Shown here: positions 5,685 to 49,550 of the stretch, piece after piece
Layout of the letters: the number at the start of each line of letters is the position of its first letter
How positions within the stretch are numbered: position 1 is the first letter of the stretch
Source of the DNA: a virus
Reading direction: 5' to 3' (one strand)
Virus record (IMG/VR): IMGVR_UViG_3300036715_000153
Location: 32,001 to 96,000 of that record
Length of the DNA: 64,000 nucleotides
Program-made: the position numbers and the translations under genes
The notes under the pieces: generated by a model
What the model was told of the DNA's origin: nothing
What the model saw: only the letters and a program-made list of their open reading frames with translations
Databases searched by the model: none

Positions 5685-5719
5685 ACGGTGCATCAGTCTT
5701 TAGCTGTTACGCAGTCGAC
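5685..5719 (+). mobile_element. Degenerate solo IS605 end-hairpin element
   Basis: ggtgcat..cagtctttagctgttacgcagtcgac matches a left-end/right-end fusion of the IS at 45942-47482. Confidence 0.7.
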
Positions 5720-9054: not shown

Positions 9055-10133
9055 TAGATTATAGATTCCTGTAAGGTCTTATCATAGATATCTTTCATTA
9101 ACGTCTTCAACTTATCTTTATCTATTGAATCTGTATCCTGTAGTCCATCTATAGCTGAAGAAATAACAACGTTTATGTTTGTGACTGTATCAGATACAAC
9201 GCTGTCCTTATATGCAGAGTTTAATAATATTGTTTCGTCTACTACCGACAGCTCTGCTGGGTTTTGATTAGATATATAAGACATGACGCTCTCGAACCCT
9301 AGTACGTCTGTCTTACTACGAACTATAAGTTTAACAAACTTATTAGATAAACTCAACTGCTTAATGCTATCGAGAATATCTGTATCTACAGAATCATTAT
9401 ACACGATGCGATTAAATAGCTTGTCGGTATATTCGTAGGGAACGAGTTCCATCGTTTCTGTATCTATCGTATGAAAATATTTCTTATCAAATACGTCTGC
9501 CCAACTCATATCATACGCAGTTCCTAAGTAATATATATTCTCACGTTGGGACTTGCTGTGGTAATGACCAGATAATACTTTGTTAAACGTCTGGAATGGC
9601 TCCATCGTCATCCCATCAGTAGATACAACTCCGGCGTGCATTAAAAACCCAGAACATTCTAGATGAGCACACAAGATGTCCGCAGATGAATTTTCTATAA
9701 TAGATTTGTATTCATTATAATGTTGATTTTGCATCCAGGGAACCATTAAGAATTCAGTAGAGTCGAATTTAATAGTAACCGGTTTATCTACGACAGTTAT
9801 GTTTGGGTAGTGGTCGGTGTCTAATAAAGTAGTGAGCGAGTTAACCTCGTTAGTGTTTCTGAAATAAACATCATGATTACCACATATTACCGTAAGTTTA
9901 ATTCCTCTAGCTTTAAGCACATCGAAGAACCGAGTCCTAAATAAAGTGAGTGTTTTGATATTAACGGATGCTCGAACGTCGAACATATCCCCTAGATGAA
10001 ATATCTGGGTAATGTTGTTCTCCTGGATATAGTCTAGTATATACTCGTGAAACTTTAAGATGTGCTGTTCTACTATATTATGAGAACTGCGGGCACCGAG
10101 GTGTGTATCAGTTAATAAAAGTATTTTACTCAT
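9054..10133 (-). CDS. gp47: Recombination endonuclease nuclease subunit (Mre11-like)
   Basis: TDTHLG, GDMFD, GNHD, SGHYH; adjacent to gp46. Confidence 0.95.
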   Translation of the reverse strand: MSKILLLTDTHLGARSSHNIVEQHILKFHEYILDYIQENNITQIFHLGDMFDVRASVNIKTLTLFRTRFFDVLKARGIKLTVICGNHDVYFRNTNEVNSLTTLLDTDHYPNITVVDKPVTIKFDSTEFLMVPWMQNQHYNEYKSIIENSSADILCAHLECSGFLMHAGVVSTDGMTMEPFQTFNKVLSGHYHSKSQRENIYYLGTAYDMSWADVFDKKYFHTIDTETMELVPYEYTDKLFNRIVYNDSVDTDILDSIKQLSLSNKFVKLIVRSKTDVLGFESVMSYISNQNPAELSVVDETILLNSAYKDSVVSDTVTNINVVISSAIDGLQDTDSIDKDKLKTLMKDIYDKTLQESII

Positions 10134-10755
10134 CTGTGGGACTCATGATGTCTTCTACGGATCTCATTTCATGTTGCTCGAGTTTTTTAAGTCTTGACGC
10201 CTTAACAGAATCTTCGTGTTTAGCAATAACGTCAGATGACCTAAGTTGTAGTAACTCAGTAGACACATTAACAAAGTGCGAGTCTTCGTCTTGAAGCTCT
10301 TGAGATATATCGTCTAACAACGTGCCCAGAGAACTGGCAATATATGCCTTAACCAGCGTTTGATGTTTTTCCTTTTTGATTCTGAAGATAAAAGAATTAA
10401 AACACGCTTGTGTGAAGTATGCGAACGGATTATCTCTATTTCGATAATCGAATTTGTGGACATATTGTATCATGTTAGCCACCGCGTCTGCTACCATCTC
10501 GTCTTTATACGAGTAATTGATAAAGTTGTGCTTTCTACTGTTAAACATAGCAATATCACTAAACACTTTACCAATTGCATTAGGAATCTGAGGTATTGGT
10601 AATCCTGCCGCTAGAGCATCTTCTCGCTTAATTAGATATTCTTTAATGTCTGCATAAAACTTTTCGTTATCTACATAATTAAACTTAGGATCCGCTTTCG
10701 CAGTCTTTGCTACGCCGCCTTGTTTTAATGTTTTACGGGTTTCGTATATTGCCAT
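10126..10755 (-). CDS. gp55: Late transcription sigma factor
   Basis: NYVDN, NFINYSYKDEMVADA, NPFAYFTQ motifs. Confidence 0.93.
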   Translation of the reverse strand: MAIYETRKTLKQGGVAKTAKADPKFNYVDNEKFYADIKEYLIKREDALAAGLPIPQIPNAIGKVFSDIAMFNSRKHNFINYSYKDEMVADAVANMIQYVHKFDYRNRDNPFAYFTQACFNSFIFRIKKEKHQTLVKAYIASSLGTLLDDISQELQDEDSHFVNVSTELLQLRSSDVIAKHEDSVKASRLKKLEQHEMRSVEDIMSPTDE

Positions 10756-14954: not shown

Positions 14955-15126
14955 ATTATCACATACTAACATTATTCGCATAGAATGTCAAATATTTAAG
15001 TCGTAGAAAAAGCCCAACTTAATGAGCTTTTCTTATTACCAGCGGAGATTCACGACAGATTGAACTAAATAGAATGGTAGCCGCGATATTACTAGTATCC
15101 GCTACCTCTAGTCACTCTAATAACAA

Positions 15127-16287
15127 TTGAAAGGCAATCGTATGACCAGCAATCTAATTTATACAACGTTAAAACTCAAATCCAAGAACGAACATTATCT
15201 AATTAGGTATTGTAACTTCATTCGATCACTAAGTACACAACTTTCTTCCGGAGGCACAGAGGCTCACCATATTTGTCCGGTTGGCGAATATCCAGAATAT
15301 TCTGATTTCGAATTACACCCATGGAACTGTGTACACCTAACAAAACACCAGCACTTTATCGCGCACTGGATGCTATGGAAAATCTTAGGATTATCTCAGA
15401 CCCGCGCGTTCAATATGATGAGTACAACCCGTGATGGAATTAGGATTAAATCTGGTCGGGTATTTGCACAGTTGAAGGACGATTATCACGCTGAGCAGAT
15501 CAGGTTGGCTGAGTTAGGGTTACATGCAAATCAGACACAAGAGTTCAGAGATCAACAACGGGCTGTGCAGAACGCCATAGTCGCCGCAGGTGAGCATCAC
15601 TGGTTAACTGAAGAACATAGTATATTTAAGAGTGAAATGGAAAAGAAGAGATATGAAGATGGTACTCATCCGTGGTGTAGTAAAGAGTTCCAGGAGGAGA
15701 ATGGCGCGCGTGCTTCGGCTAGGCAGAAGGCATTAGTTGATGCAGGTGTGCATATTTGGCAGAGTGAAGAGTGCAAGGCAGAAACATCGAGGAGGCTCTT
15801 AGAACTATCTGCCAAAGGAGAACACCCCTTCCAAGATGCGGAGTTCAAAGCTCGTAATTCTGCTAGACAAAAAGAATTATCGGCCAAGGGAGAACATCAT
15901 ACACAACAGAAAGAGTGCATCGAATTACACAAGGAAGGGTTATTGTGTAAAAGAAACAGGAATAATGTTGCTATATTGAAGGGTCACGCGGAAAGACTTC
16001 GAATGGTCTTAGGTTCGGGCTATGATTTAAAATCGGATGAATGGATAAACGAAAAGATTAAAGAATTAGAGTTAATTGAATATATAGAACCACCAAAGGC
16101 ATATCAGTGCAACTCAGACGAATCTCTAAAGGCATCTGGATTGAGAATAAAGAATAAGTCGAATAGGGAATGTGTTGTAGAGTTAAGACTTCTTGCTAAG
16201 GACAAAAATGTTACCCTATCTAGGGGATATAGCATGAAACCAGATGAATGGATATTAGAAAAGATTAAGGAAATACAAAAGTTGTAG
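15127..16287 (+). CDS. HNH homing endonuclease with GxHxW/F helical repeats
   Basis: EAHHICP...WNCVHLTKHQHFIAHWML; ~25-aa repeats; duplicated C-terminal domain. Confidence 0.8.
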   Translation: MKGNRMTSNLIYTTLKLKSKNEHYLIRYCNFIRSLSTQLSSGGTEAHHICPVGEYPEYSDFELHPWNCVHLTKHQHFIAHWMLWKILGLSQTRAFNMMSTTRDGIRIKSGRVFAQLKDDYHAEQIRLAELGLHANQTQEFRDQQRAVQNAIVAAGEHHWLTEEHSIFKSEMEKKRYEDGTHPWCSKEFQEENGARASARQKALVDAGVHIWQSEECKAETSRRLLELSAKGEHPFQDAEFKARNSARQKELSAKGEHHTQQKECIELHKEGLLCKRNRNNVAILKGHAERLRMVLGSGYDLKSDEWINEKIKELELIEYIEPPKAYQCNSDESLKASGLRIKNKSNRECVVELRLLAKDKNVTLSRGYSMKPDEWILEKIKEIQKL

Positions 16288-16358: not shown

Positions 16359-17765
16359 TCACCCATGGAGGTTCTGTACGGAAGCAATCCTATAAAAACC
16401 GTTCGACCGGAATGTTGCACCACCGAATGGGTTTGTAGCAAAGCCAGCACGACTCTTCAAAGCCATCAGAGGTTGGAAGCTCGTTGGATCAGTTGCGCGT
16501 TGCAATTGAGCTGCGACATACGGAGCGTAGAACGCGCCAGCTGCATAAGGGCTAGAACCTTTGTAACCAACACAGTAGAAGTCAGCGCTTGCATAAGGGT
16601 CAACAAACACTTTCATCTTACCACCGATTGTACCAACGAATGTGCTTTGTGTAAAGTCTGCATTCAATGTTTCCAATTGTTGGATTGCTGGAGCGTATGA
16701 CATGCTACCTGCTGCTGCCAATGCGGATGCTACGTCACCGGAACAGATAAGGATGTTACCTTTACCCATACGCAGATCGTAAGCAATAGCGTTAGCATCG
16801 CGTTCGATTGCAAACAACAGACCTTTGAACTTCTCATTCGACCAACGACCATCTGTATCAGCTGCAAAGTTAAACACGCCTGGGAGGGTAGCTTTCTGTG
16901 CACCTGGCTTAGCCAAGTTATAGATAGTACGCAGTACACGACGGTTTGTTTCTGTGATCAGTTCAGTTGACATAATATGGCTCAACTCTGACTCAGCGTC
17001 CAGACCATGCAATGCTTTCATGTCCTGTGCCATTTCCAGAGAGTAACCAGATGCCAATTGATAAGTAGCAGCAGTAACAGTCAACTTCTCGATCGACATT
17101 GCCACTTTAGCAGTTATGTCACCTTCACCAGTCGCTGTAAGGATACCACCGCCGTTAGCGTTACCCAGCTGAATAGTAGTTGTTGCGTTGGTTGCAGTTG
17201 CGTTCGAAGAAGCTACAAACACTGTACCGTTGGTAATAGAAGCTACAGTTGTACCAGCAGCGAATTCAGTAGCAGCCAGTGGTTGACCTACTTGGATGTT
17301 AGCTGTAGAAGTAACAGTAACGTTAGCAGAACCAGAAGTAACTGCTGCAGACATTACTTGAACGCCGAGGTATGAACCAAACACGCCAGAAGAACCACCA
17401 ACAGAACCAGAAGTACCACCAGAGAAGCTGGTATCGGATTCGTTCCACAATGCTTCTGTACCAGCTTGTGTTGAGTAACGACTACGCAGTGCGAACACCA
17501 AACCAGTTGGAGTTGTCATTGGCTGCAAACCGCATACATCGAAAGCGATCAAGTTAGGAGCAGCACGACGAACCATGCTGATCAGAACTGGGTCATAACC
17601 TGCAACACCAGCGGCAACGTTAGTAGGAGCGGCTTCTTGCAAAGCCTTTTCTTGGTTTTCCAATAGGATTGCAGTTACGTTACGACGATATTCGTCCTTG
17701 ATTTCTGGAAGAGTACTTTCGTTCAGTACTGGTGCCCATTTTTCATTAAGAGCTTGATCTTGCAT
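16359..17765 (-). CDS. gp23: Major capsid protein
   Basis: EKWAPVL, TAILLENQ, PNLIAFDVCGLQPM, QDMKALHGLDAESEL, AFYAPYV, SFQP. Confidence 0.97.
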   Translation of the reverse strand: MQDQALNEKWAPVLNESTLPEIKDEYRRNVTAILLENQEKALQEAAPTNVAAGVAGYDPVLISMVRRAAPNLIAFDVCGLQPMTTPTGLVFALRSRYSTQAGTEALWNESDTSFSGGTSGSVGGSSGVFGSYLGVQVMSAAVTSGSANVTVTSTANIQVGQPLAATEFAAGTTVASITNGTVFVASSNATATNATTTIQLGNANGGGILTATGEGDITAKVAMSIEKLTVTAATYQLASGYSLEMAQDMKALHGLDAESELSHIMSTELITETNRRVLRTIYNLAKPGAQKATLPGVFNFAADTDGRWSNEKFKGLLFAIERDANAIAYDLRMGKGNILICSGDVASALAAAGSMSYAPAIQQLETLNADFTQSTFVGTIGGKMKVFVDPYASADFYCVGYKGSSPYAAGAFYAPYVAAQLQRATDPTSFQPLMALKSRAGFATNPFGGATFRSNGFYRIASVQNLHG

Positions 17766-17799: not shown

Positions 17800-17807
17800 T
17801 ATTTAGT
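17800..17807 (-). promoter_or_regulatory. Late (gp55) promoter ACTAAATA upstream of gp23
   Basis: Variant of the T4 TATAAATA box; the same motif precedes gp22 (18862-18869) and gp20 (22820-22827). Confidence 0.7.
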
Positions 17808-17829: not shown

Positions 17830-18858
17830 TTAGCGGCTACGCCTAATAGCAGCCAAGTAAGAAGTCATCTTCTCGTCCACTTTCGGTTTAGATGTACCTT
17901 CAGACTCATCAATAGATTTATTTTCTGGTACATCAACTTTCGCTACTGATTCGTCGACAGACTTAGCAACTGGAACAGTAGAGAAGTATTCTTTAATAGC
18001 TTGTACTTTAGTCTCGAACGATTTAACATCTTCGTTCATAAATTCTTTAGCCAGACCATGGAACTTGTCGACTTGTGTATCTGTAAGACCTACACATGCC
18101 TCGTCAACGATAGACACTTTCTTATCGACGATCGCTTTTTCCTCAACTTCTTGGATAGTAACGATTGCAGACTTAAGAGCAGTTTGTGTGGCCTTTAATT
18201 CTTCTTGCAAACTCTCAACGAGGTCTTGCTTCCCAGCAGGAACTTCGATGTTGTGCGATTCAAACAAGTCTTTAAGACCACTAATAAATGACTCGGTCAA
18301 CTTAGTTTGAACTTTAGACTCAACGGCTTCTTTGTTTTCTTCCAACCACTGCTCAGATACATAAGTCAAATAAGAGTCGATAGATGCTTCTTGTTCTTTA
18401 GCTTGCTCATCTAATTGCTTAGCAATGCGCTTTTCCAACTTAGCATATTTAGACTCAGCTAACTTAGTAGCAGCTTCTTTAACAGCAGCGATAAAAGTAA
18501 CTTCTGCTTTAGCTTTGAATTCTTCAGTAAGACCTTCTACACCAGAGAACATAGCTGCCACAGATTCCTTAACATCACCTGCGACTTTCATCGCTTTGTC
18601 ATCGTCTTCTTTGTCTTCGTCGTCGTCTTCTTCGTCATCATCCATAGATTCTTTAGCATCAAAAGGATTTACACCTTTTTTACCAGCCATAGATTTCATG
18701 TCCATGTCTTTATCTTTGGCTTCACCAGCCTCGTCCTCGTCTTCTTCCTTATCTTCGCCTTTGGCTTCAATAAGATCTGCGAGGTTGTTTAATCCTTGCT
18801 TGCGCAGTTCTTCAATGTTAAGTGGCATTTCTATTCCTTTGTTAAAATTGTGTTTCAT
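17830..18858 (-). CDS. gp22: Prohead core scaffold protein
   Basis: LTEEFKAKAEVTF, DSYLTYVSEQWLEEN, ESFISGLKDLFESHNIEVP. Confidence 0.93.
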   Translation of the reverse strand: MKHNFNKGIEMPLNIEELRKQGLNNLADLIEAKGEDKEEDEDEAGEAKDKDMDMKSMAGKKGVNPFDAKESMDDDEEDDDEDKEDDDKAMKVAGDVKESVAAMFSGVEGLTEEFKAKAEVTFIAAVKEAATKLAESKYAKLEKRIAKQLDEQAKEQEASIDSYLTYVSEQWLEENKEAVESKVQTKLTESFISGLKDLFESHNIEVPAGKQDLVESLQEELKATQTALKSAIVTIQEVEEKAIVDKKVSIVDEACVGLTDTQVDKFHGLAKEFMNEDVKSFETKVQAIKEYFSTVPVAKSVDESVAKVDVPENKSIDESEGTSKPKVDEKMTSYLAAIRRSR

Positions 18859-18889
18859 TAATATTTAGTTAACTACCAAAACAGGTCGC

Positions 18890-21124: not shown

Positions 21125-22792
21125 TTATTGTGGAGATTGATCATCTGGTGCAGCTGGCTCGTCGGTTGGAGCTGAATCTGGTTGCTGTGCCGGTGCTGCG
21201 GTATCTGCGAACTGTGTAGGTGCATCCGCGGCATCTGGCGGAGTTATTCCTTCATCGTCTATTTGTTTATTCATTTCATCGTATTCTTCGTCAGACATTA
21301 GTAAGATCTGTTTCATAACATATTCTTTAGAAACATACTTACCAACGAACATATCTGCCATCTGAACAGTAGTAAACCTCTCGCGGATAATCTCCGTCTC
21401 TTTTAACTCTGTGTAGAAACTATCCTTAGACCATTCAACAGAAAGTTGACGTTTGATATCTTCACTCTCTTCGGCCCTAATAATCTTCTTGACGATCAAC
21501 TGTGTAATTAATAAGTCGATCAACAACAAAGAAAACTTATTACGTAGTCTGTCTATAAACTTTTGAAACTTAATCTCATCGCGAGTAATTTCGGATGTTC
21601 TTCCGAGACCACCGACCATAGGAGCTTCATCACTAAGTCTAGACAACGGAACGTTCAGAGACTTATACAACTTCTTTTTCATTAACTCTAGGTCATCTAC
21701 TTCACCTAGATTAGCGCCAGACTCCAGCGTAGATATTTCGGTAGACTTACCATCCCCTCTACGTGGAATCCAAAAGTCCTCGAGCATCGACATATTACGT
21801 CTAGCGTCTTTGACTTCTCCTGTCAGTGCATCGTATGTTAAGTTCGTACGGAACTTATTCATCATGTCTTTCATATACTGCTCTGCCTTTTGTGGAGGCA
21901 TGTTACCTACGTCTACGTAGAAGATACGACGTTCTGGTGCACGAGCAATACGATACAAAACCATAGAATCTTCTAAGGTGCGTAAGTTATTCGCAGTCTT
22001 TAATGCTGGGTGTAAATATGAAAGAATACAAGAATACTCTTCGTCATATAAACCAGACGTAACGTATGCAATCGCGTCTGGTGCAATCTTAACAAGTTGA
22101 TCGATCGAGCCTAGCGATGAAGATCCGTTATATCCTGGGGCAGTTAATACCCCAGACATACCATTACCGCTATCGTTAATAGCAATAGTGGAACCCTTAC
22201 GAGCCGCCTGATATGTAAAGTATTCTTTCTTAGTCTTATTAGTCTCTACTCCAGTCTGGTTTTTAGACTTTTCAATTTCAACGACTCGTCTAATGGTAGT
22301 AGGACTGATATACCTGGCCTCAATCAGTCCTTCATTTTGATCCCAAATCTTATGGAAGTAGATACGTCCGTCGATATACCAGCGGCGGACTAAGTCGTAT
22401 GCCTTTTGATTAAACTGGATGCGAGTCATGACTTCGTCAAACTCGTTGGATATTTTATTCTTAATAGAGTTCGAAAACTTTAAGTCGTCGGTATTTAACT
22501 TAACAACATTACCTTCGGCGTCTTCAGACATCATCTCATTAACTATTTCGTCGATGGCATATGACACTTCAGGGATGCGCGATATATCCCTATATCTGCG
22601 GATTAACTCAACTTCGTTAGTAGACGCCGATGGGTCTAAGTCATACGAGAAGTTAACTCTGTTTGATTCTACTACGATAGCGCCGTCGGCGTTTGGTAAT
22701 ACAAAAGATTCGACTTCGGTAGATACGTCCATCTCCTTTTCGGGATTTTTTGTATAACCGAACATGTTTGAGATTTGTTCTAAAAGATTCAT
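21125..22792 (-). CDS. gp20: Portal protein
   Basis: WYIDGR, YRIARAPERRIFYVDVGNMP, EITRDEIKF. Confidence 0.97.
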   Translation of the reverse strand: MNLLEQISNMFGYTKNPEKEMDVSTEVESFVLPNADGAIVVESNRVNFSYDLDPSASTNEVELIRRYRDISRIPEVSYAIDEIVNEMMSEDAEGNVVKLNTDDLKFSNSIKNKISNEFDEVMTRIQFNQKAYDLVRRWYIDGRIYFHKIWDQNEGLIEARYISPTTIRRVVEIEKSKNQTGVETNKTKKEYFTYQAARKGSTIAINDSGNGMSGVLTAPGYNGSSSLGSIDQLVKIAPDAIAYVTSGLYDEEYSCILSYLHPALKTANNLRTLEDSMVLYRIARAPERRIFYVDVGNMPPQKAEQYMKDMMNKFRTNLTYDALTGEVKDARRNMSMLEDFWIPRRGDGKSTEISTLESGANLGEVDDLELMKKKLYKSLNVPLSRLSDEAPMVGGLGRTSEITRDEIKFQKFIDRLRNKFSLLLIDLLITQLIVKKIIRAEESEDIKRQLSVEWSKDSFYTELKETEIIRERFTTVQMADMFVGKYVSKEYVMKQILLMSDEEYDEMNKQIDDEGITPPDAADAPTQFADTAAPAQQPDSAPTDEPAAPDDQSPQ

Positions 22793-22876
22793 TGATTATA
22801 TGTTACAAATAATAATTTTTATTTAGTTGAACTACATGTATTGACATTTAGTCTTTGCTAGTATATCATTTTTAAT

Positions 22877-27220: not shown

Positions 27221-27874
27221 TTACACTCTGGTGACAGTAGTCGAACCCGCATTAGAATTAATCTGCTGAGATATTGTACCTGCTGTTCTTGATGTATCAG
27301 TTACAACTAAGGGTTTAGTCATATCAAGACCATACAACGCATAGATTTCCTGTAACATAATCAACTGATTAGGAGTTAATCCATCTACTTGAGCAGATAC
27401 CTTAGTATCAATATCCCCTGCAAGCGACAGCGTATCTTTAACTAACTTACCTGCTGTGCCTGCTATATTATATGTTGATAAATCTGTTGCCCAAGGATCA
27501 CCTACCTTAACGTTTATCAAACCAGCTGAGTTATGAGGTACTATTGATACTTGATTTAGATTTCTCTTACTGTGTATATTATTGTTGCTACCAGTTATAT
27601 TTACTTGATATTGACCATCTTCGAATGTAATACTATATGGGTCCAATATCTCGATAGTTCTTGCATAAGTCAATCCGTCGATTGTAACTTCTGTGTTGTG
27701 TCGGTTTGTATCTGGCATATACATACCATCTTCACTATCGGCCCAGTCATTTAACGCATTTCTAAAAGCATTGCTATCCAATTCATAAATTTCGAATGGC
27801 AGAGATTGTACCAAAGTCATAAAAGATTTTGGTACTGATATAATGAACGTAGCTGGGTCGATTGTTATTGCCAT
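27221..27874 (-). CDS. Hypothetical virion protein
   Basis: TATAAATA late box immediately upstream (27880-27887). Confidence 0.65.
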   Translation of the reverse strand: MAITIDPATFIISVPKSFMTLVQSLPFEIYELDSNAFRNALNDWADSEDGMYMPDTNRHNTEVTIDGLTYARTIEILDPYSITFEDGQYQVNITGSNNNIHSKRNLNQVSIVPHNSAGLINVKVGDPWATDLSTYNIAGTAGKLVKDTLSLAGDIDTKVSAQVDGLTPNQLIMLQEIYALYGLDMTKPLVVTDTSRTAGTISQQINSNAGSTTVTRV

Positions 27875-27886
27875 ACTATTATTTAT

Positions 27887-27930
27887 ACGAGCATAAACGT
27901 AACAGCCTTTTTAGCTGTTACGCGGTCTAC
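27887..27930 (+). mobile_element. Solo IS605 end-hairpin element
   Basis: gcataaacgtaacagc-ctttt-tagctgttacgcggtctac following TTTAT. Confidence 0.75.
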
Positions 27931-42159: not shown

Positions 42160-42205
42160 AACAGGTGCATAAAACGTAACAGTCTTTAGCTGTTACGCAG
42201 CCGAC
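42160..42205 (+). mobile_element. Solo IS605 end-hairpin element (best preserved copy)
   Basis: ggtgcataaaacgtaacagtctttagctgttacg is identical to the IS left end; it ends cagccgac like the right end; follows TTTAT. Confidence 0.85.
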
Positions 42206-44142: not shown

Positions 44143-44337
44143 TTATCCACCGAAAAGTAGCGCGTTCAAGAAAGAATCATCAGCTGCTGTTGCTTTCACT
44201 TCATTGACTGCAGCAACGATAGATGATGTGTCCGCTGTTGTTAATAGAGTTATATCACCTACTGCACTATCAGTTGCATTAGTGTTAGCCCGCCACTCAT
44301 CGAACGTATTATCTAAGGTAGTTTGGTGTATAGTCAT
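44143..44337 (-). CDS. Small structural protein (fibre-anchor-like)
   Basis: NTFDEWRANTN and GDI..L.T...SIVAAVNE motifs. Confidence 0.55.
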   Translation of the reverse strand: MTIHQTTLDNTFDEWRANTNATDSAVGDITLLTTADTSSIVAAVNEVKATAADDSFLNALLFGG

Positions 44338-44367
44338 ATAGTGTAACCTTGTTATTTATCTGTTAAT

Positions 44368-45813
44368 TTAGTTGACGTTATGCCAAACTATTCCACCACG
44401 AACTTCTGTTTCTGGTTCGTCTCTCGCCATCGCAATAGATAGTATCTGTGGTAACATATCGTGTGCTAGTCTATCTTTATATGCAGCTAATACTGCCGCT
44501 CTCGCATCGCTGTTGTTGAGCGATTTAAAATATTCTTGAGTTGTAGCCCAAGCAAATAACACGATCGTCATAACCATATCGTCGTGTGCATTATCGTCTG
44601 CCTCGTACGAAGATCCTTTACTAATAAACGTAGAGAACTCTGAAATCGTCGCTTCGTCGTTTATAATAAGCAAGTCTGACTCGATAATCTGTTTTGCATT
44701 CGAACAACCGATGCGCTTCGTACGCTTGTCTGTCCTCAATCCGTTCTGCTGTTGCATTGATGCACCAGACATTAACTGTTGTCCGTGTTTAGTAGATTGC
44801 CCTACCCACGCAACGTTCTCGTAACCAAACTCATATACTAGCGTATCTGCGACTTGTTTACCCGTAGACTGAATCTCAATCAATACAAATGCTGTGTTAT
44901 ATTTAGTTGCAGTTTGATATATGAAGTCCGGGAATACCATAGGATTCATTCTATTATTCTTATACGTTGCGACCTGATTATACGGTTTAGCCGTAATGTC
45001 TATTACGCTGAATGCAGACGAATCCCCACCCACACCTTCAGAGCAGTCGACTGTCATCATGTATTGGTGACCTTCAATCGGGGATTGGTATATTTTTAAA
45101 TTGTTATGAATTAGTTCTGGATTAGCGTGTACTAGCTTGCGTAGTGTTTGTGAGTTTAATAGCGTACCAGATGAACCGATAAACTCTGCACCAAACTCTT
45201 GGTCGAACGTTTCTTGACCAATGTTAGAAATCGTATCTGCTTTCCATTTCTCATCTCTACCCGGTACGTCCCACCAGTTGATAGAGTTGGCTACGAACAG
45301 CGAACGTTTTGACTCCGCGTCTACCCACAGCTTATAGAAATGATTCAGACCTTTGGGTGTAGACACCAAGATAACCTTAGTTTCTTGACCAGATGAAATA
45401 GTGGGATATACTGAGTCCCAGAACTCTGCCCACTGAGTGCCCATGATAAAAGCTACCTCGTCTACAAACAGCAGACTGATGGACGTATTGTGTGAAACTA
45501 TTCCGTTGGCATAATATTTATTATCTTTAACCACGAATGCAGGATCGTACATCTTCTTACTACAGTTTATAATAGTTTTACTCGATACTTTACTTATACC
45601 CGATTCTGTCACTAACGCTGCACCATTGCGAATAGATGATGCCTTTTTCCATCCTCGATCAGTCATTAACGGGTGGTTGGGAGTTACTTCTATAGAATTA
45701 CCATTGATTGTCTCGAATTTAATAGTTTCGTCTGTGTCATATACAGCGACACCCGAAAAATCGGACCACCCGTCTGGTGTAAGTATTTCCCAATCGGTGT
45801 TATTTAGAAACAC
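44368..45813 (-). CDS. gp17: Large terminase C-terminal half fused to split-intein IntC
   Basis: The first 109 aa are IntC (TPNHP block B, ending YYANGIVSHN). Then TSISLLFVDE Walker B, STPKGLNHFY, nuclease VDCSEG and HDDMVM. GTG start. Confidence 0.93.
   Translation of the reverse strand: MFLNNTDWEILTPDGWSDFSGVAVYDTDETIKFETINGNSIEVTPNHPLMTDRGWKKASSIRNGAALVTESGISKVSSKTIINCSKKMYDPAFVVKDNKYYANGIVSHNTSISLLFVDEVAFIMGTQWAEFWDSVYPTISSGQETKVILVSTPKGLNHFYKLWVDAESKRSLFVANSINWWDVPGRDEKWKADTISNIGQETFDQEFGAEFIGSSGTLLNSQTLRKLVHANPELIHNNLKIYQSPIEGHQYMMTVDCSEGVGGDSSAFSVIDITAKPYNQVATYKNNRMNPMVFPDFIYQTATKYNTAFVLIEIQSTGKQVADTLVYEFGYENVAWVGQSTKHGQQLMSGASMQQQNGLRTDKRTKRIGCSNAKQIIESDLLIINDEATISEFSTFISKGSSYEADDNAHDDMVMTIVLFAWATTQEYFKSLNNSDARAAVLAAYKDRLAHDMLPQILSIAMARDEPETEVRGGIVWHNVN
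45487..45813 (-). other. Split intein C-fragment (IntC, 109 aa; +1 residue Thr)
   Basis: Terminal His-Asn followed by Thr; resembles the AceL-TerL type IntC. Confidence 0.9.
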
Positions 45814-45988
45814 GAATCCGCCCGAGCTGGTAAGAAGTTAACTAACAAGTCGTGACGGTCATGCATCACTTCCCCGTGATTTACATCGATCGACAGCTTA
45901 GTTATGTAAAATGATTGAGTCATCATTGAAATCTCCTTTATCTTTGGTGCATAAAACGTAACAGTCTTTAGCTGTTACGATGTAGCAC

Positions 45989-46135
45989 CTATCCCTGATT
46001 TAAAATATACTGTTTTACTGTCTCCGTTGATGCTTGTCCAGTCGATGCTACAAAATATCCATTAGACCAAAAAGTTCTTTCTTTCCAAAAATATTTAGAA
46101 AGATCAAAATGTTTCCAAATTTCAATAGTTGTTTT
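45989..46135 (-). pseudogene. tnpA: C-terminal remnant of IS200 Y1 transposase
   Basis: Translates ...FWKERTFWSNGYFVASTGQASTETVKQYILNQG*; HUH-containing N-terminus absent; nearest ATG (46139) is out of frame. Confidence 0.88.
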
Positions 46136-47329
46136 CCATAATATATTATTTAGTGAAATATATTTTCAATTTATAGTGAAATATTAAAAATGATAACTAA
46201 ATAGTAGTATGGAATTCAAAGCATACAAATTCAGAATATACCCAACAAAGGAACAAGAGAAAACTCTTGCTAAGTTCTTTGGTGCCAAACGATGGATTTT
46301 TAATCATTATCTTCACGAAAATAAACAACGCTTTCAGAATAAAGAAAAGCACCTTTCTAATTTCGATATTAACTATGATATTACAACTCTTAAAACATTA
46401 GAAGAAACTTCTTGGTTAAAAGAAATTGATTCTATATTACTACAGAACGCCAGTGAAGATTTACACACTGCATATTCGAATTTCTTTAATTCTATAACTG
46501 GTAAACGTAAAGGTCCTTCTATTTCGATCCCTAAGTATAAGTCGAAATATGATAAACAATCATATCGTACTCGCGGTGTAAAGGTGAACTTCGACGATAA
46601 TATAATAACTTTACCAAAAATTAAGAAAGTCAAGGCAGCTATTCATCGTAAATTCACTGGTAATATTAAATCATCGACAGTTTCAAAAACTGCATCTGGT
46701 CAGTATTATATTTCAATACTCGTTGAGGAAGATATTAAACTACTTCCTGCATCTGGTATCGAAATTGGTATTGATCTTGGTATCAAAGACTTGTGTATTT
46801 TGTCTAATGGTATCAAGTTTCAATCTCCTAGAATATTACTAGCAAAAGCCACGCTAGAATTAAAGAAGCAACAACGTAAACTAAGTAGAAAGCAAAAGAA
46901 TTCTAAAAATAGAGCCAAGCAGAAAATTAAGGTAGCTAAAGCATATCAACGAATAACAAATATTCGTAATGCTTACTATCACGAAATTTCTAATTATCTC
47001 GTTACGAATTTCGATGCAATATACATGGAAAGTCTCAATGTAAAAGGAATGCTAAAGAATCGTAAATTAAGTAGATCAATTCAAGAGTCTAGTTGGTCGA
47101 CATTAGTTAATATGATTCAATATAAAGCAGGATTTTACGGTAAAACTTTTCATCAAATTGGTAGATTTGTTCCTTCGACAAAAACATGTTCGTGCTGTAA
47201 TCATAAATTAGATTCGATTTCTCTTTCTACTAGAGAATGGTCTTGTCCGGTGTGCAATACACTTCACGACAGAGACCTGAATGCAGCATCGAATATTAAA
47301 AATTTCGGTCAATTAGATGTATATGATCG

Positions 47330-48560
<1,231 letters not shown>

Positions 48561-49466: not shown

Positions 49467-49550
49467 GTATGTGTTTGATTATTATTTGTTTTTATTTATT
49501 TAGCAGTTTAATGCATGATTAACAGACATTTAACGTATCTATATCACATT

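Follow-up and report, generated by a model that had tools for sequence, protein, structure and literature searches.

Why does a transposable element that lies inside the terminase gene of a T4-like phage carry the octamer ACTAAATA on both strands, once just upstream of its nuclease gene tnpB and once in front of what remains of its transposase gene tnpA? The original prediction was that the element is adapted to transcription dependent on the phage late sigma factor gp55, and that the promoter on the minus strand could also supply the C-terminal part of the split terminase, which would select for keeping the element after the loss of tnpA. Here we follow both parts of this proposal, and they lead to different answers.

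TnpB, the nuclease of IS200/IS605-type elements, is the ancestor of Cas12. In bacteria it has been established as a homing nuclease that works with a guide RNA (Meers et al. 2023, PMC10055086). The lifestyle of TnpB elements in lytic phages is not described in the literature that we searched, and searches that paired TnpB with T4-like phages, late promoters or leaderless transcripts returned no description of the arrangement reported here. The late-promoter box of T4 spans positions -13 to -6, and the late consensus of the Aeromonas phage Aeh1 is CTAAATA from position -12, with a/gC replacing TA (PMC1524935, PMC2988020). In T4, promoters embedded in the seg and mob genes drive essential downstream genes, which favours retention of the mobile genes (PMC2988022).

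Methods

The window, i.e., the whole stretch of DNA that was analysed, is 64,000 nucleotides long and was taken from a virus record of 140,394 bp (bases 32001-96000), which has direct terminal repeats and a GC content of 40%; coordinates refer to the window unless the genome or another record is named. Relatives of TnpB were found by profile scans and a large protein search; pattern scans with single proteins found almost nothing close. The relatives were split at 50% TnpB identity (17 non-redundant ones with at least 50%, 137 below), the start codon was located in every fetched tnpB locus, and the 70 nt upstream were compared. Variants of the box were tallied by the two bases that precede TAAATA in upstream regions of five phages, which is a small sample.

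The late-promoter box of the phage

The source of the window is an uncultured T4-like phage. Its minus strand encodes gp23, gp22 and gp20 (Table 1) and also, according to PHROG searches, a tail-tube gene, TerS and a tail sheath stabiliser. A homologue of gp55 is present (Table 1), and the candidate for gp45 is weak (E = 3e-4, 24% identity). The Pfam DNA_PPF search of the genome gave no match, as was also the case for control sequences, and no gp33 homologue was found in a genome search, which is weak evidence, gp33 being poorly conserved. A megablast search of 44300-48200 against GenBank phages returned no match.

The octamer ACTAAATA has 16 copies in the 140-kb genome, and nine of the 16 lie at most 70 nt upstream of the start of a same-strand ORF; a uniform distribution would put 0.69 copies there. 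The window holds 11 copies compared with 5.25 expected, a number that was reached in 2 of 100 shuffles. Distances from the box to the start cluster at 26-45 nt and are followed by Shine-Dalgarno sequences, and the genes preceded by the box include a tail-tube gene as well as gp23, gp22 and gp20, for which the original prediction had named it. The gp22 gene has a second in-frame ATG, 33 nt beyond the first, with an AAAGGA Shine-Dalgarno sequence. Because of its enrichment before genes and its agreement with the published Aeh1 consensus, ACTAAATA can be identified as the late-promoter variant in use here; it is the known Aeh1-type variant of the T4 late promoter TATAAATA and the main late box of this phage, in which TATAAATA itself is a rarer second variant (27880, 33039, 40124 and 42153).

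Two further genes of the window carry boxes of these kinds. A free-standing HNH-type homing endonuclease gene (phrog_655; 15064-16287 on the plus strand including the box), antisense to head and tail genes, has its own ACTAAATA at 15064-15071, about 70 nt upstream. A gene of 217 aa (27221-27887 on the minus strand including the box, ORF 27221-27874), located directly after a diverged solo hairpin of the type described below, has TATAAATA, then ATAGT, then ATG, a layout of the same leaderless type as that of tnpB. It has no family match, and the possibility that it is a decayed tnpB was rejected, there being no similarity to TnpB.

Table 1 Features of the window that are referred to in the text (positions counted from the first base of the window)
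Feature	Position	Strand	Basis or remark
gp55 homologue, late sigma factor	10126-10755	-	36% identity to T4 gp55, E = 1e-18; phrog_234 (late sigma transcription factor), E = 1e-43
gp23	16359-17765	-	PHROG search
ACTAAATA box of gp23	17800-17807	-	34 nt before ATG
gp22	17830-18858	-	PHROG search
ACTAAATA box of gp22	18862-18869	-	3 nt before first ATG
gp20	21125-22792	-	PHROG search
ACTAAATA box of gp20	22820-22827	-	27 nt before ATG
IntC (109 aa, ends HN, Thr at +1) fused to TerL C-extein	44368-45813	-	Terminase_6N positions 95-213 and Terminase_6C
ORF40, 40 codons, strong AAGGAG Shine-Dalgarno (45938-45933)	45804-45926	-	stop overlaps IntC GTG
Probable target/TAM pentamer TTTAT abutting left end	45937-45941	+	flank comparison: solo copies 42164, 27880, 5687; L017, L018
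Left end with subterminal hairpin 45957-45979	45942-45979		minus strand: hairpin then UUUUAU, terminator-like
tnpA remnant	45992-46144	-	Pfam Y1_Tnp positions 74-121 of 121, E = 5e-10
Predicted late-promoter box ACTAAATA, former tnpA promoter	46147-46154	-	sequence; equivalent boxes before tnpA in relatives
TAGTGAAATAT, an 11-nt direct repeat in two exact copies 23 nt apart, located between the boxes	46151-46184		
Predicted late-promoter box ACTAAATA for tnpB	46196-46203	+	sequence; geometry common to 11/17 close relatives
tnpB, 404 aa, intact	46209-47423	+	Pfam HTH_OrfB_IS605, OrfB_IS605 and Cas12f1-like_TNB, all above cut-off; phrog_506
Perfect palindrome over tnpB stop codon	47411-47432	-	then CUUUCGAUUUU on minus strand; -9.8 kcal/mol, z = -3.6
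Right end with hairpin	47449-47482		96% identical to left-end hairpin; ends ...GAC at 47482
TerL N-extein and IntN (Cys1 at 47579-47577)	47463-48107	-	Terminase_6N positions 6-94

The element and its two genes

The tnpB gene is single-copy in the genome and antisense to every neighbouring gene, and residues D189, E274 and D356 of its product are invariant, together with the four zinc-finger cysteines, in an alignment of 31 sequences. The plus-strand octamer stands where it had been reported: it is followed by GTAGT and then by the tnpB ATG, such that the end of the box lies 5 nt before the start codon, and no GGAG-like Shine-Dalgarno sequence occurs in the preceding 20 nt. Because T4 late boxes span -13 to -6, with five more bases to +1, the predicted tnpB start site is 46209, which is the A of the ATG and the sixth base after the box, and the transcript would be a leaderless late mRNA. 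Since tnpB is antisense to its neighbours and has no Shine-Dalgarno sequence, such an mRNA would be the simplest route to its expression. Stray tnpB transcripts that do carry a leader would presumably be translated poorly, so that TnpB would be limited to late infection.

The minus-strand octamer likewise precedes the tnpA remnant, in agreement with the original prediction. After it come 7 nt and then, at 46139, the ATG of a frame only five codons long; the predicted +1 of this box lies near 46141, with transcription directed toward the left end of the element and the C-terminal half of TerL. The remnant, which is in a different frame from the 5-codon ORF, constitutes the C-terminal third of the protein and corresponds to residues 79-127 of its homologue in the related locus L017 (tblastn against L017 TnpA); the HUH part is deleted, and no functional Y1 (HUH) TnpA is encoded. 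Because only Y1_Tnp positions 74-121 are left, this copy of the element is non-autonomous. The distance from box to box is 41 nt here and 16 nt in L017, and the TAGTGAAATAT repeats are probably a small duplication that widened the spacer.

One sequence identity links the tnpB promoter region with the flank of the right end. The 11 nt at 46198-46208 (TAAATAGTAGT, part of the tnpB box with the spacer) are the exact reverse complement of 47481-47491, a stretch made up of the two bases that close the right end (47481-47482) and the first nine of its flank, the presumed start of the TnpB guide. The identity looked at first like autorepression in the style of I-TevI, but the position of the TAM is mismatched, which makes cleavage unlikely, and it may reflect either chance or self-regulation. 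An Rfam scan of 45700-47700 found neither an omega-RNA nor any other family.

Relatives of tnpB and tnpA

The nearest TnpB proteins are 51-76% identical to the one studied here and come from metagenomes; the nearest matches from bacterial genomes reach only 32-39%. Where the context of the close relatives is visible, they lie beside UvsW, UvsY or gp23, or a gp23 homologue is found in the same record. A TAAATA box within 50 nt of the tnpB start is present in 16/17 relatives with at least 50% identity and in 11/137 of those below (Fisher p = 1e-13); a box located 4-7 nt before the start is present in 11/17 and 1/137, respectively (Fisher p = 7e-12), which means that the motif is not equally common in copies from related phages and in bacterial or other distant copies. 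Shine-Dalgarno-like sequences are distributed the other way, occurring before tnpB in 2/17 close and 68/137 distant relatives, the latter typically with GGAGGTG. The leaderless layout is common among the close relatives, not universal, for the box lies 24-41 nt upstream in five of the 17. Three copies of tnpB are found in a single T4-like phage (G005, a 129-kb record, which is also the record of locus L037), at 77311, 85835 and 92939, and all three have TATAAATA, then 5-7 nt, then ATG.

The two bases in front of TAAATA differ among phages, and the boxes of the element mostly differ with them. AC is dominant in the present phage (nine upstream copies), and both element boxes have AC; in G005, xATAAATA is dominant and the tnpB boxes are TATAAATA; in phage G003, GA is the commonest variant and the tnpB box is GATAAATA; in phage G001, CA is joint commonest and both element boxes are CATAAATA. 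The match is imperfect in phage G004, where AA is the commonest variant, the tnpB box is CATAAATA (CA), and CA occurs upstream of only one gene. The variant found in the element is thus also found upstream of genes of the resident phage in all five phages and is the commonest or joint commonest in four of them, and AC is found at the tnpB box in none of the 17 close relatives. These sequences fit either co-adaptation or long residence of the element in one phage lineage.

Three of the related loci (L017, L018 and L148) contain a full divergent tnpA, which in L017 covers Pfam Y1_Tnp positions 2-121, and in each of them CATAAATA is located on the minus strand 30-41 nt before the tnpA ATG. A fourth, L020, has undergone a different tnpA deletion that left residues 88-127 and has kept the minus-strand CATAAATA and the leader; the genes beyond its left end are convergent, and none lies downstream of the box on that strand. 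Judging from these loci, the minus-strand box in the present phage is the ancestral tnpA promoter of the element family, and back-to-back late boxes are a trait of the family. Because the L020 box was kept with no gene downstream, survival of the box requires no selection related to TerL.

The split terminase

The element sits inside TerL, between IntN and ORF40. The split in TerL falls between the regions of Walker A and Walker B, at position 94/95 of the Terminase_6N profile; the N part ends with ...AIRG and is followed by IntN, which starts with Cys. With the Cys1 IntN on one ORF and the HN-ending IntC plus nucleophile on another, the sequence has the features of an atypical split intein. 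IntC starts at GTG 45813, and its best PDB match is 6dsl_B, the engineered consensus atypical split intein CatC (E = 3e-7). ORF40, for which no family match was found, may act as a coupling ORF. A further box, TCTAAATA at 45801-45808 (minus strand), is located just inside IntC, 5 nt after the GTG; it is probably unused for the C-terminal half of TerL because its transcript would lack the IntC start codon. On the other side of the gap, the IntN frame enters the right end of the element and stops inside its hairpin (47463-47490, minus strand), such that its last five or so residues, QLRNS, are encoded by the transposon.

An IntC-TerL that is 68% identical and has no transposon occurs on a metagenome contig (L250, 3-1980), where TerL-N lies beyond the contig end. 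The start of this IntC overlaps the end of an upstream ORF of 177 aa, which has endonuclease-like repeats by eye and no Pfam match, and the 125 nt upstream of IntC contain no late box. The L250 IntC is probably read from an upstream transcript, and the two halves of TerL would then be co-transcribed. The layout of L250 resembles a 'fractured gene' without a transposon.

Ends, target and solo hairpins

A 26-nt repeat with 96% identity is found at the two ends of the element (45954-45979 and 47449-47474). In front of the left end stands TTTAT and then 4 nt, in the present phage as well as at the solo copies described below and in the relatives; at 45937-45941 TTTAT is the complement of ATAAA in the Shine-Dalgarno region of ORF40. 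Because a gapped exact pattern found no element-free allele of the TerL spacer in IMG/VR, we infer the boundaries of the element and its TTTAT target from such comparisons. The palindrome over the tnpB stop codon appears from its sequence to be a terminator-like obstacle to TerL-N transcripts.

Solo end hairpins are found at 42164-42197, at about 27890-27925 (diverged), at 5687-5719 (broken) and at genome positions 100485-100523 (L003:1500-1545). Every one of them is bordered by sequence from the left end on one flank and from the right end on the opposite flank, and beyond GAC the solo copies have different flanking DNA. Solo hairpins are probably what remains of lost copies after recombination between the 26-nt end repeats. 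Two of the solo hairpins abut TATAAATA late boxes, which is consistent with a TTTAT target. An earlier reading, in which the left-end hairpin had to be a working terminator given that solo copies are followed by TATAAATA boxes, was withdrawn: with TTTAT, which is complementary to the core of the box, as the probable target of the element, this adjacency is silent on termination.

Interpretation and alternatives

From the motifs, their positions and enrichment, the conserved layout and the occurrence of a gp55 gene, all of which are observed directly, we infer that the two octamers are probably divergent late promoters of the gp55 type that belong to the element itself and serve tnpB and tnpA, respectively, and a trait of an IS605-type family that inhabits T4-like phages. 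Late RNA polymerase would start at the A of the tnpB AUG, as set by the position of the box, and with no Shine-Dalgarno sequence TnpB would be made only from the leaderless late transcript. The RNA-guided nuclease would thus be confined to late infection, when many phage genomes and any co-infecting element-free genomes would be present, by the timing logic of the T4 homing endonucleases. Both boxes have the AC variant that is used for gp23, gp22 and gp20. Codons 1 to ~78 of tnpA have been lost from this copy and its promoter has been kept, giving a transcript that would cross what is left of tnpA and then the left-end hairpin on its way to ORF40 and IntC-TerL. The original claim that the element is adapted to the gp55-dependent late programme is supported by the use of the dominant late box of the resident phage, by the recurrence, in relatives from other T4-like phages, of a box, 5 nt and an ATG with no Shine-Dalgarno sequence, and by the matching of variants, imperfect in G004.

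Several other explanations of the octamers have to be considered. The element is AT-rich (27-33% GC compared with 40% in the flanks), and at such a composition loose matches to the late box are not uncommon: a degenerate [AT][CA]TAAATA is found on both strands of the 69-nt spacer in 2.7% of dinucleotide shuffles. It is nevertheless extremely unlikely that both octamers are accidental and functionless in 27%-GC DNA, given that the chance of an exact octamer on each strand of this AT-rich spacer was estimated at P = 2.5e-4 (200,000 dinucleotide shuffles; 0.21 copies expected in the whole 1541-bp element), that both copies face outward toward the two genes, and that the position relative to the ATG is conserved among relatives with just 51-76% protein identity. 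Composition alone does not explain the pair, and the comparative evidence is stronger still. TAAATA before an ATG could also act on translation or otherwise at the RNA level within a longer mRNA, A-rich or U-rich sequences before start codons being able to boost translation, or it could be a protein-binding site, as could the 11-nt TAGTGAAATAT repeats between the boxes for some regulator. We consider this improbable, for the motif equals the phage late box at all eight bases, its variant mostly tracks the resident phage, no plus-strand promoter is evident upstream from which an mRNA could reach a tnpB gene that is antisense to all its neighbours, and the boxes 24-41 nt upstream in five relatives fit a promoter better than a ribosome signal. 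Early or constitutive expression of both genes from host sigma-70 promoters might be suggested by a minus-strand match consisting of TTGAAA, 18 nt and TATATT at 46169-46140. This match is, however, one of 24 in the region where 18.8 are expected, its 18-nt spacer is poor, no comparable plus-strand match precedes tnpB, and the conserved geometry of the box would be left unexplained, all of which makes such promoters very unlikely.

A different question, and one whose answer is compatible with the element having late promoters of its own, is whether the minus-strand box is also a working promoter of ORF40 and IntC-TerL, on which the phage depends and which selects for the element; we regard this as possible, if doubtful. 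The box is directed toward ORF40 and IntC-TerL, and the distance from it to the IntC GTG is 334 nt. In the element-free L250 the IntC overlaps its upstream gene with no late box near, which fits an IntC fed from upstream; in the present phage one has to go upstream as far as GCTAAATA at 49497 to reach another late box, and its transcripts would have to cross 1.5 kb of antisense element with two terminator-like hairpins, meeting in turn the right-end hairpin, the palindrome with CUUUCGAUUUU, 1.2 kb of antisense tnpB with converging transcription, a weak hairpin and the left-end hairpin. Transcripts from the minus box would meet the left-end hairpin only, and the promoters embedded in seg and mob of T4 provide a precedent (PMC2988022). 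On the other hand, the family had the box ancestrally, and elsewhere it stands before an intact tnpA; in L020, where all genes downstream are convergent, it outlives a tnpA deletion of independent origin; a transcript from it must still pass the left-end hairpin and then UUUUAU; and loss of the element by recombination between the end hairpins, as has seemingly occurred at four other sites, would restore co-transcription, such that dependence is not forced. We would hence not count on a material contribution of the minus box to the IntC-TerL transcripts, conceivable as it is. What stands of the original claim about the minus-strand promoter is the geometry, which would allow it to feed IntC-TerL; that the element is retained, or selected, through IntC-TerL finds no support in the comparisons, in which the box is the ancestral tnpA promoter (L017, L018, L148) and survives in L020.

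All of these elements could be combined into a lineage of IS605/TnpB elements that specialise in T4-like phages, with both genes on gp55 late promoters that evolve with the variant of the resident phage, TnpB made only from a leaderless late mRNA, a TTTAT target that is the complement of the late-box core, and an orphaned tnpA promoter from which, in this phage, the C-terminal half of a split-intein TerL is transcribed. So comprehensive a combination is rather unlikely to hold in every part; if it did, expression of an essential packaging gene would now run in part through a selfish element.

Relation to known systems

The boxes described here resemble the late promoters of the T4 family (gp55, gp33, gp45; a/gCTAAATA in Aeh1) in that an 8-bp box with no -35 element precedes the orthologues of gp23, gp22 and gp20 in a phage with a gp55 homologue; they differ in that the box is also found within a transposable element, on both strands, and in a placement before tnpB that predicts no leader. 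The homing endonuclease genes of T4 (I-TevI; segG, segA, segE, mobB, mobC) are similar as mobile nuclease genes with late promoters whose translation is limited to the late transcript, and an outward promoter inside such a mobile element can serve an essential downstream gene (PMC2988022). Here, in contrast, the nuclease is an RNA-guided TnpB in an IS200/IS605 element rather than a GIY-YIG or HNH enzyme, and translation would be restricted to late infection by the missing Shine-Dalgarno sequence and a predicted leaderless start, whereas I-TevI uses an RNA hairpin (PMC2988022). A conserved late box giving a leaderless tnpB mRNA would be a simple timing device like that of homing endonucleases, reached by another route.

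Leaderless bacterial mRNAs such as that of lambda cI from PRM share the predicted 5'-terminal AUG and the lack of a Shine-Dalgarno sequence, the difference being that the predicted source of the mRNA is here a gp55 late promoter. We found no published example of a leaderless mRNA from a promoter of this kind, and tnpB offers a directly testable case of leaderless translation from one.

Atypical split inteins (PDB 6DSL) are the closest parallel to the division of TerL by an intein whose IntN is short (about 31-38 aa) and whose IntC has 109 aa; L250 adds to the likeness with its free-standing endonuclease-like ORF that overlaps IntC. We take the split TerL intein to be akin to the AceL-TerL / Cat family (fractured genes, Dassa 2009). 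The difference from fractured genes and split inteins lies in the gap, which is filled here by an IS605/TnpB element. An element within a naturally split terminase may serve as a test bed for the question of whether the promoters of mobile elements become necessary to their hosts.

Finally, the element shares with IS200/IS605 elements of bacteria (ISDra2, IS608, Geobacillus ISGst) the divergent Y1 tnpA and tnpB, similar subterminal hairpins, a probable short adjacent target/TAM and solo derivatives that encode no protein. Unlike them, it has a lytic T4-like phage as its host and phage late boxes at both genes; the distant tnpB relatives from bacteria and other phages have GGAGGTG-type Shine-Dalgarno sequences and no such box. 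In the related locus L018 (1960-2040, minus strand) the left end of the element abuts a AATAAATA box, downstream of which are the Shine-Dalgarno sequence and ATG of a 519-aa gene, and here too the insertion lies at the upstream edge of a probable late promoter.
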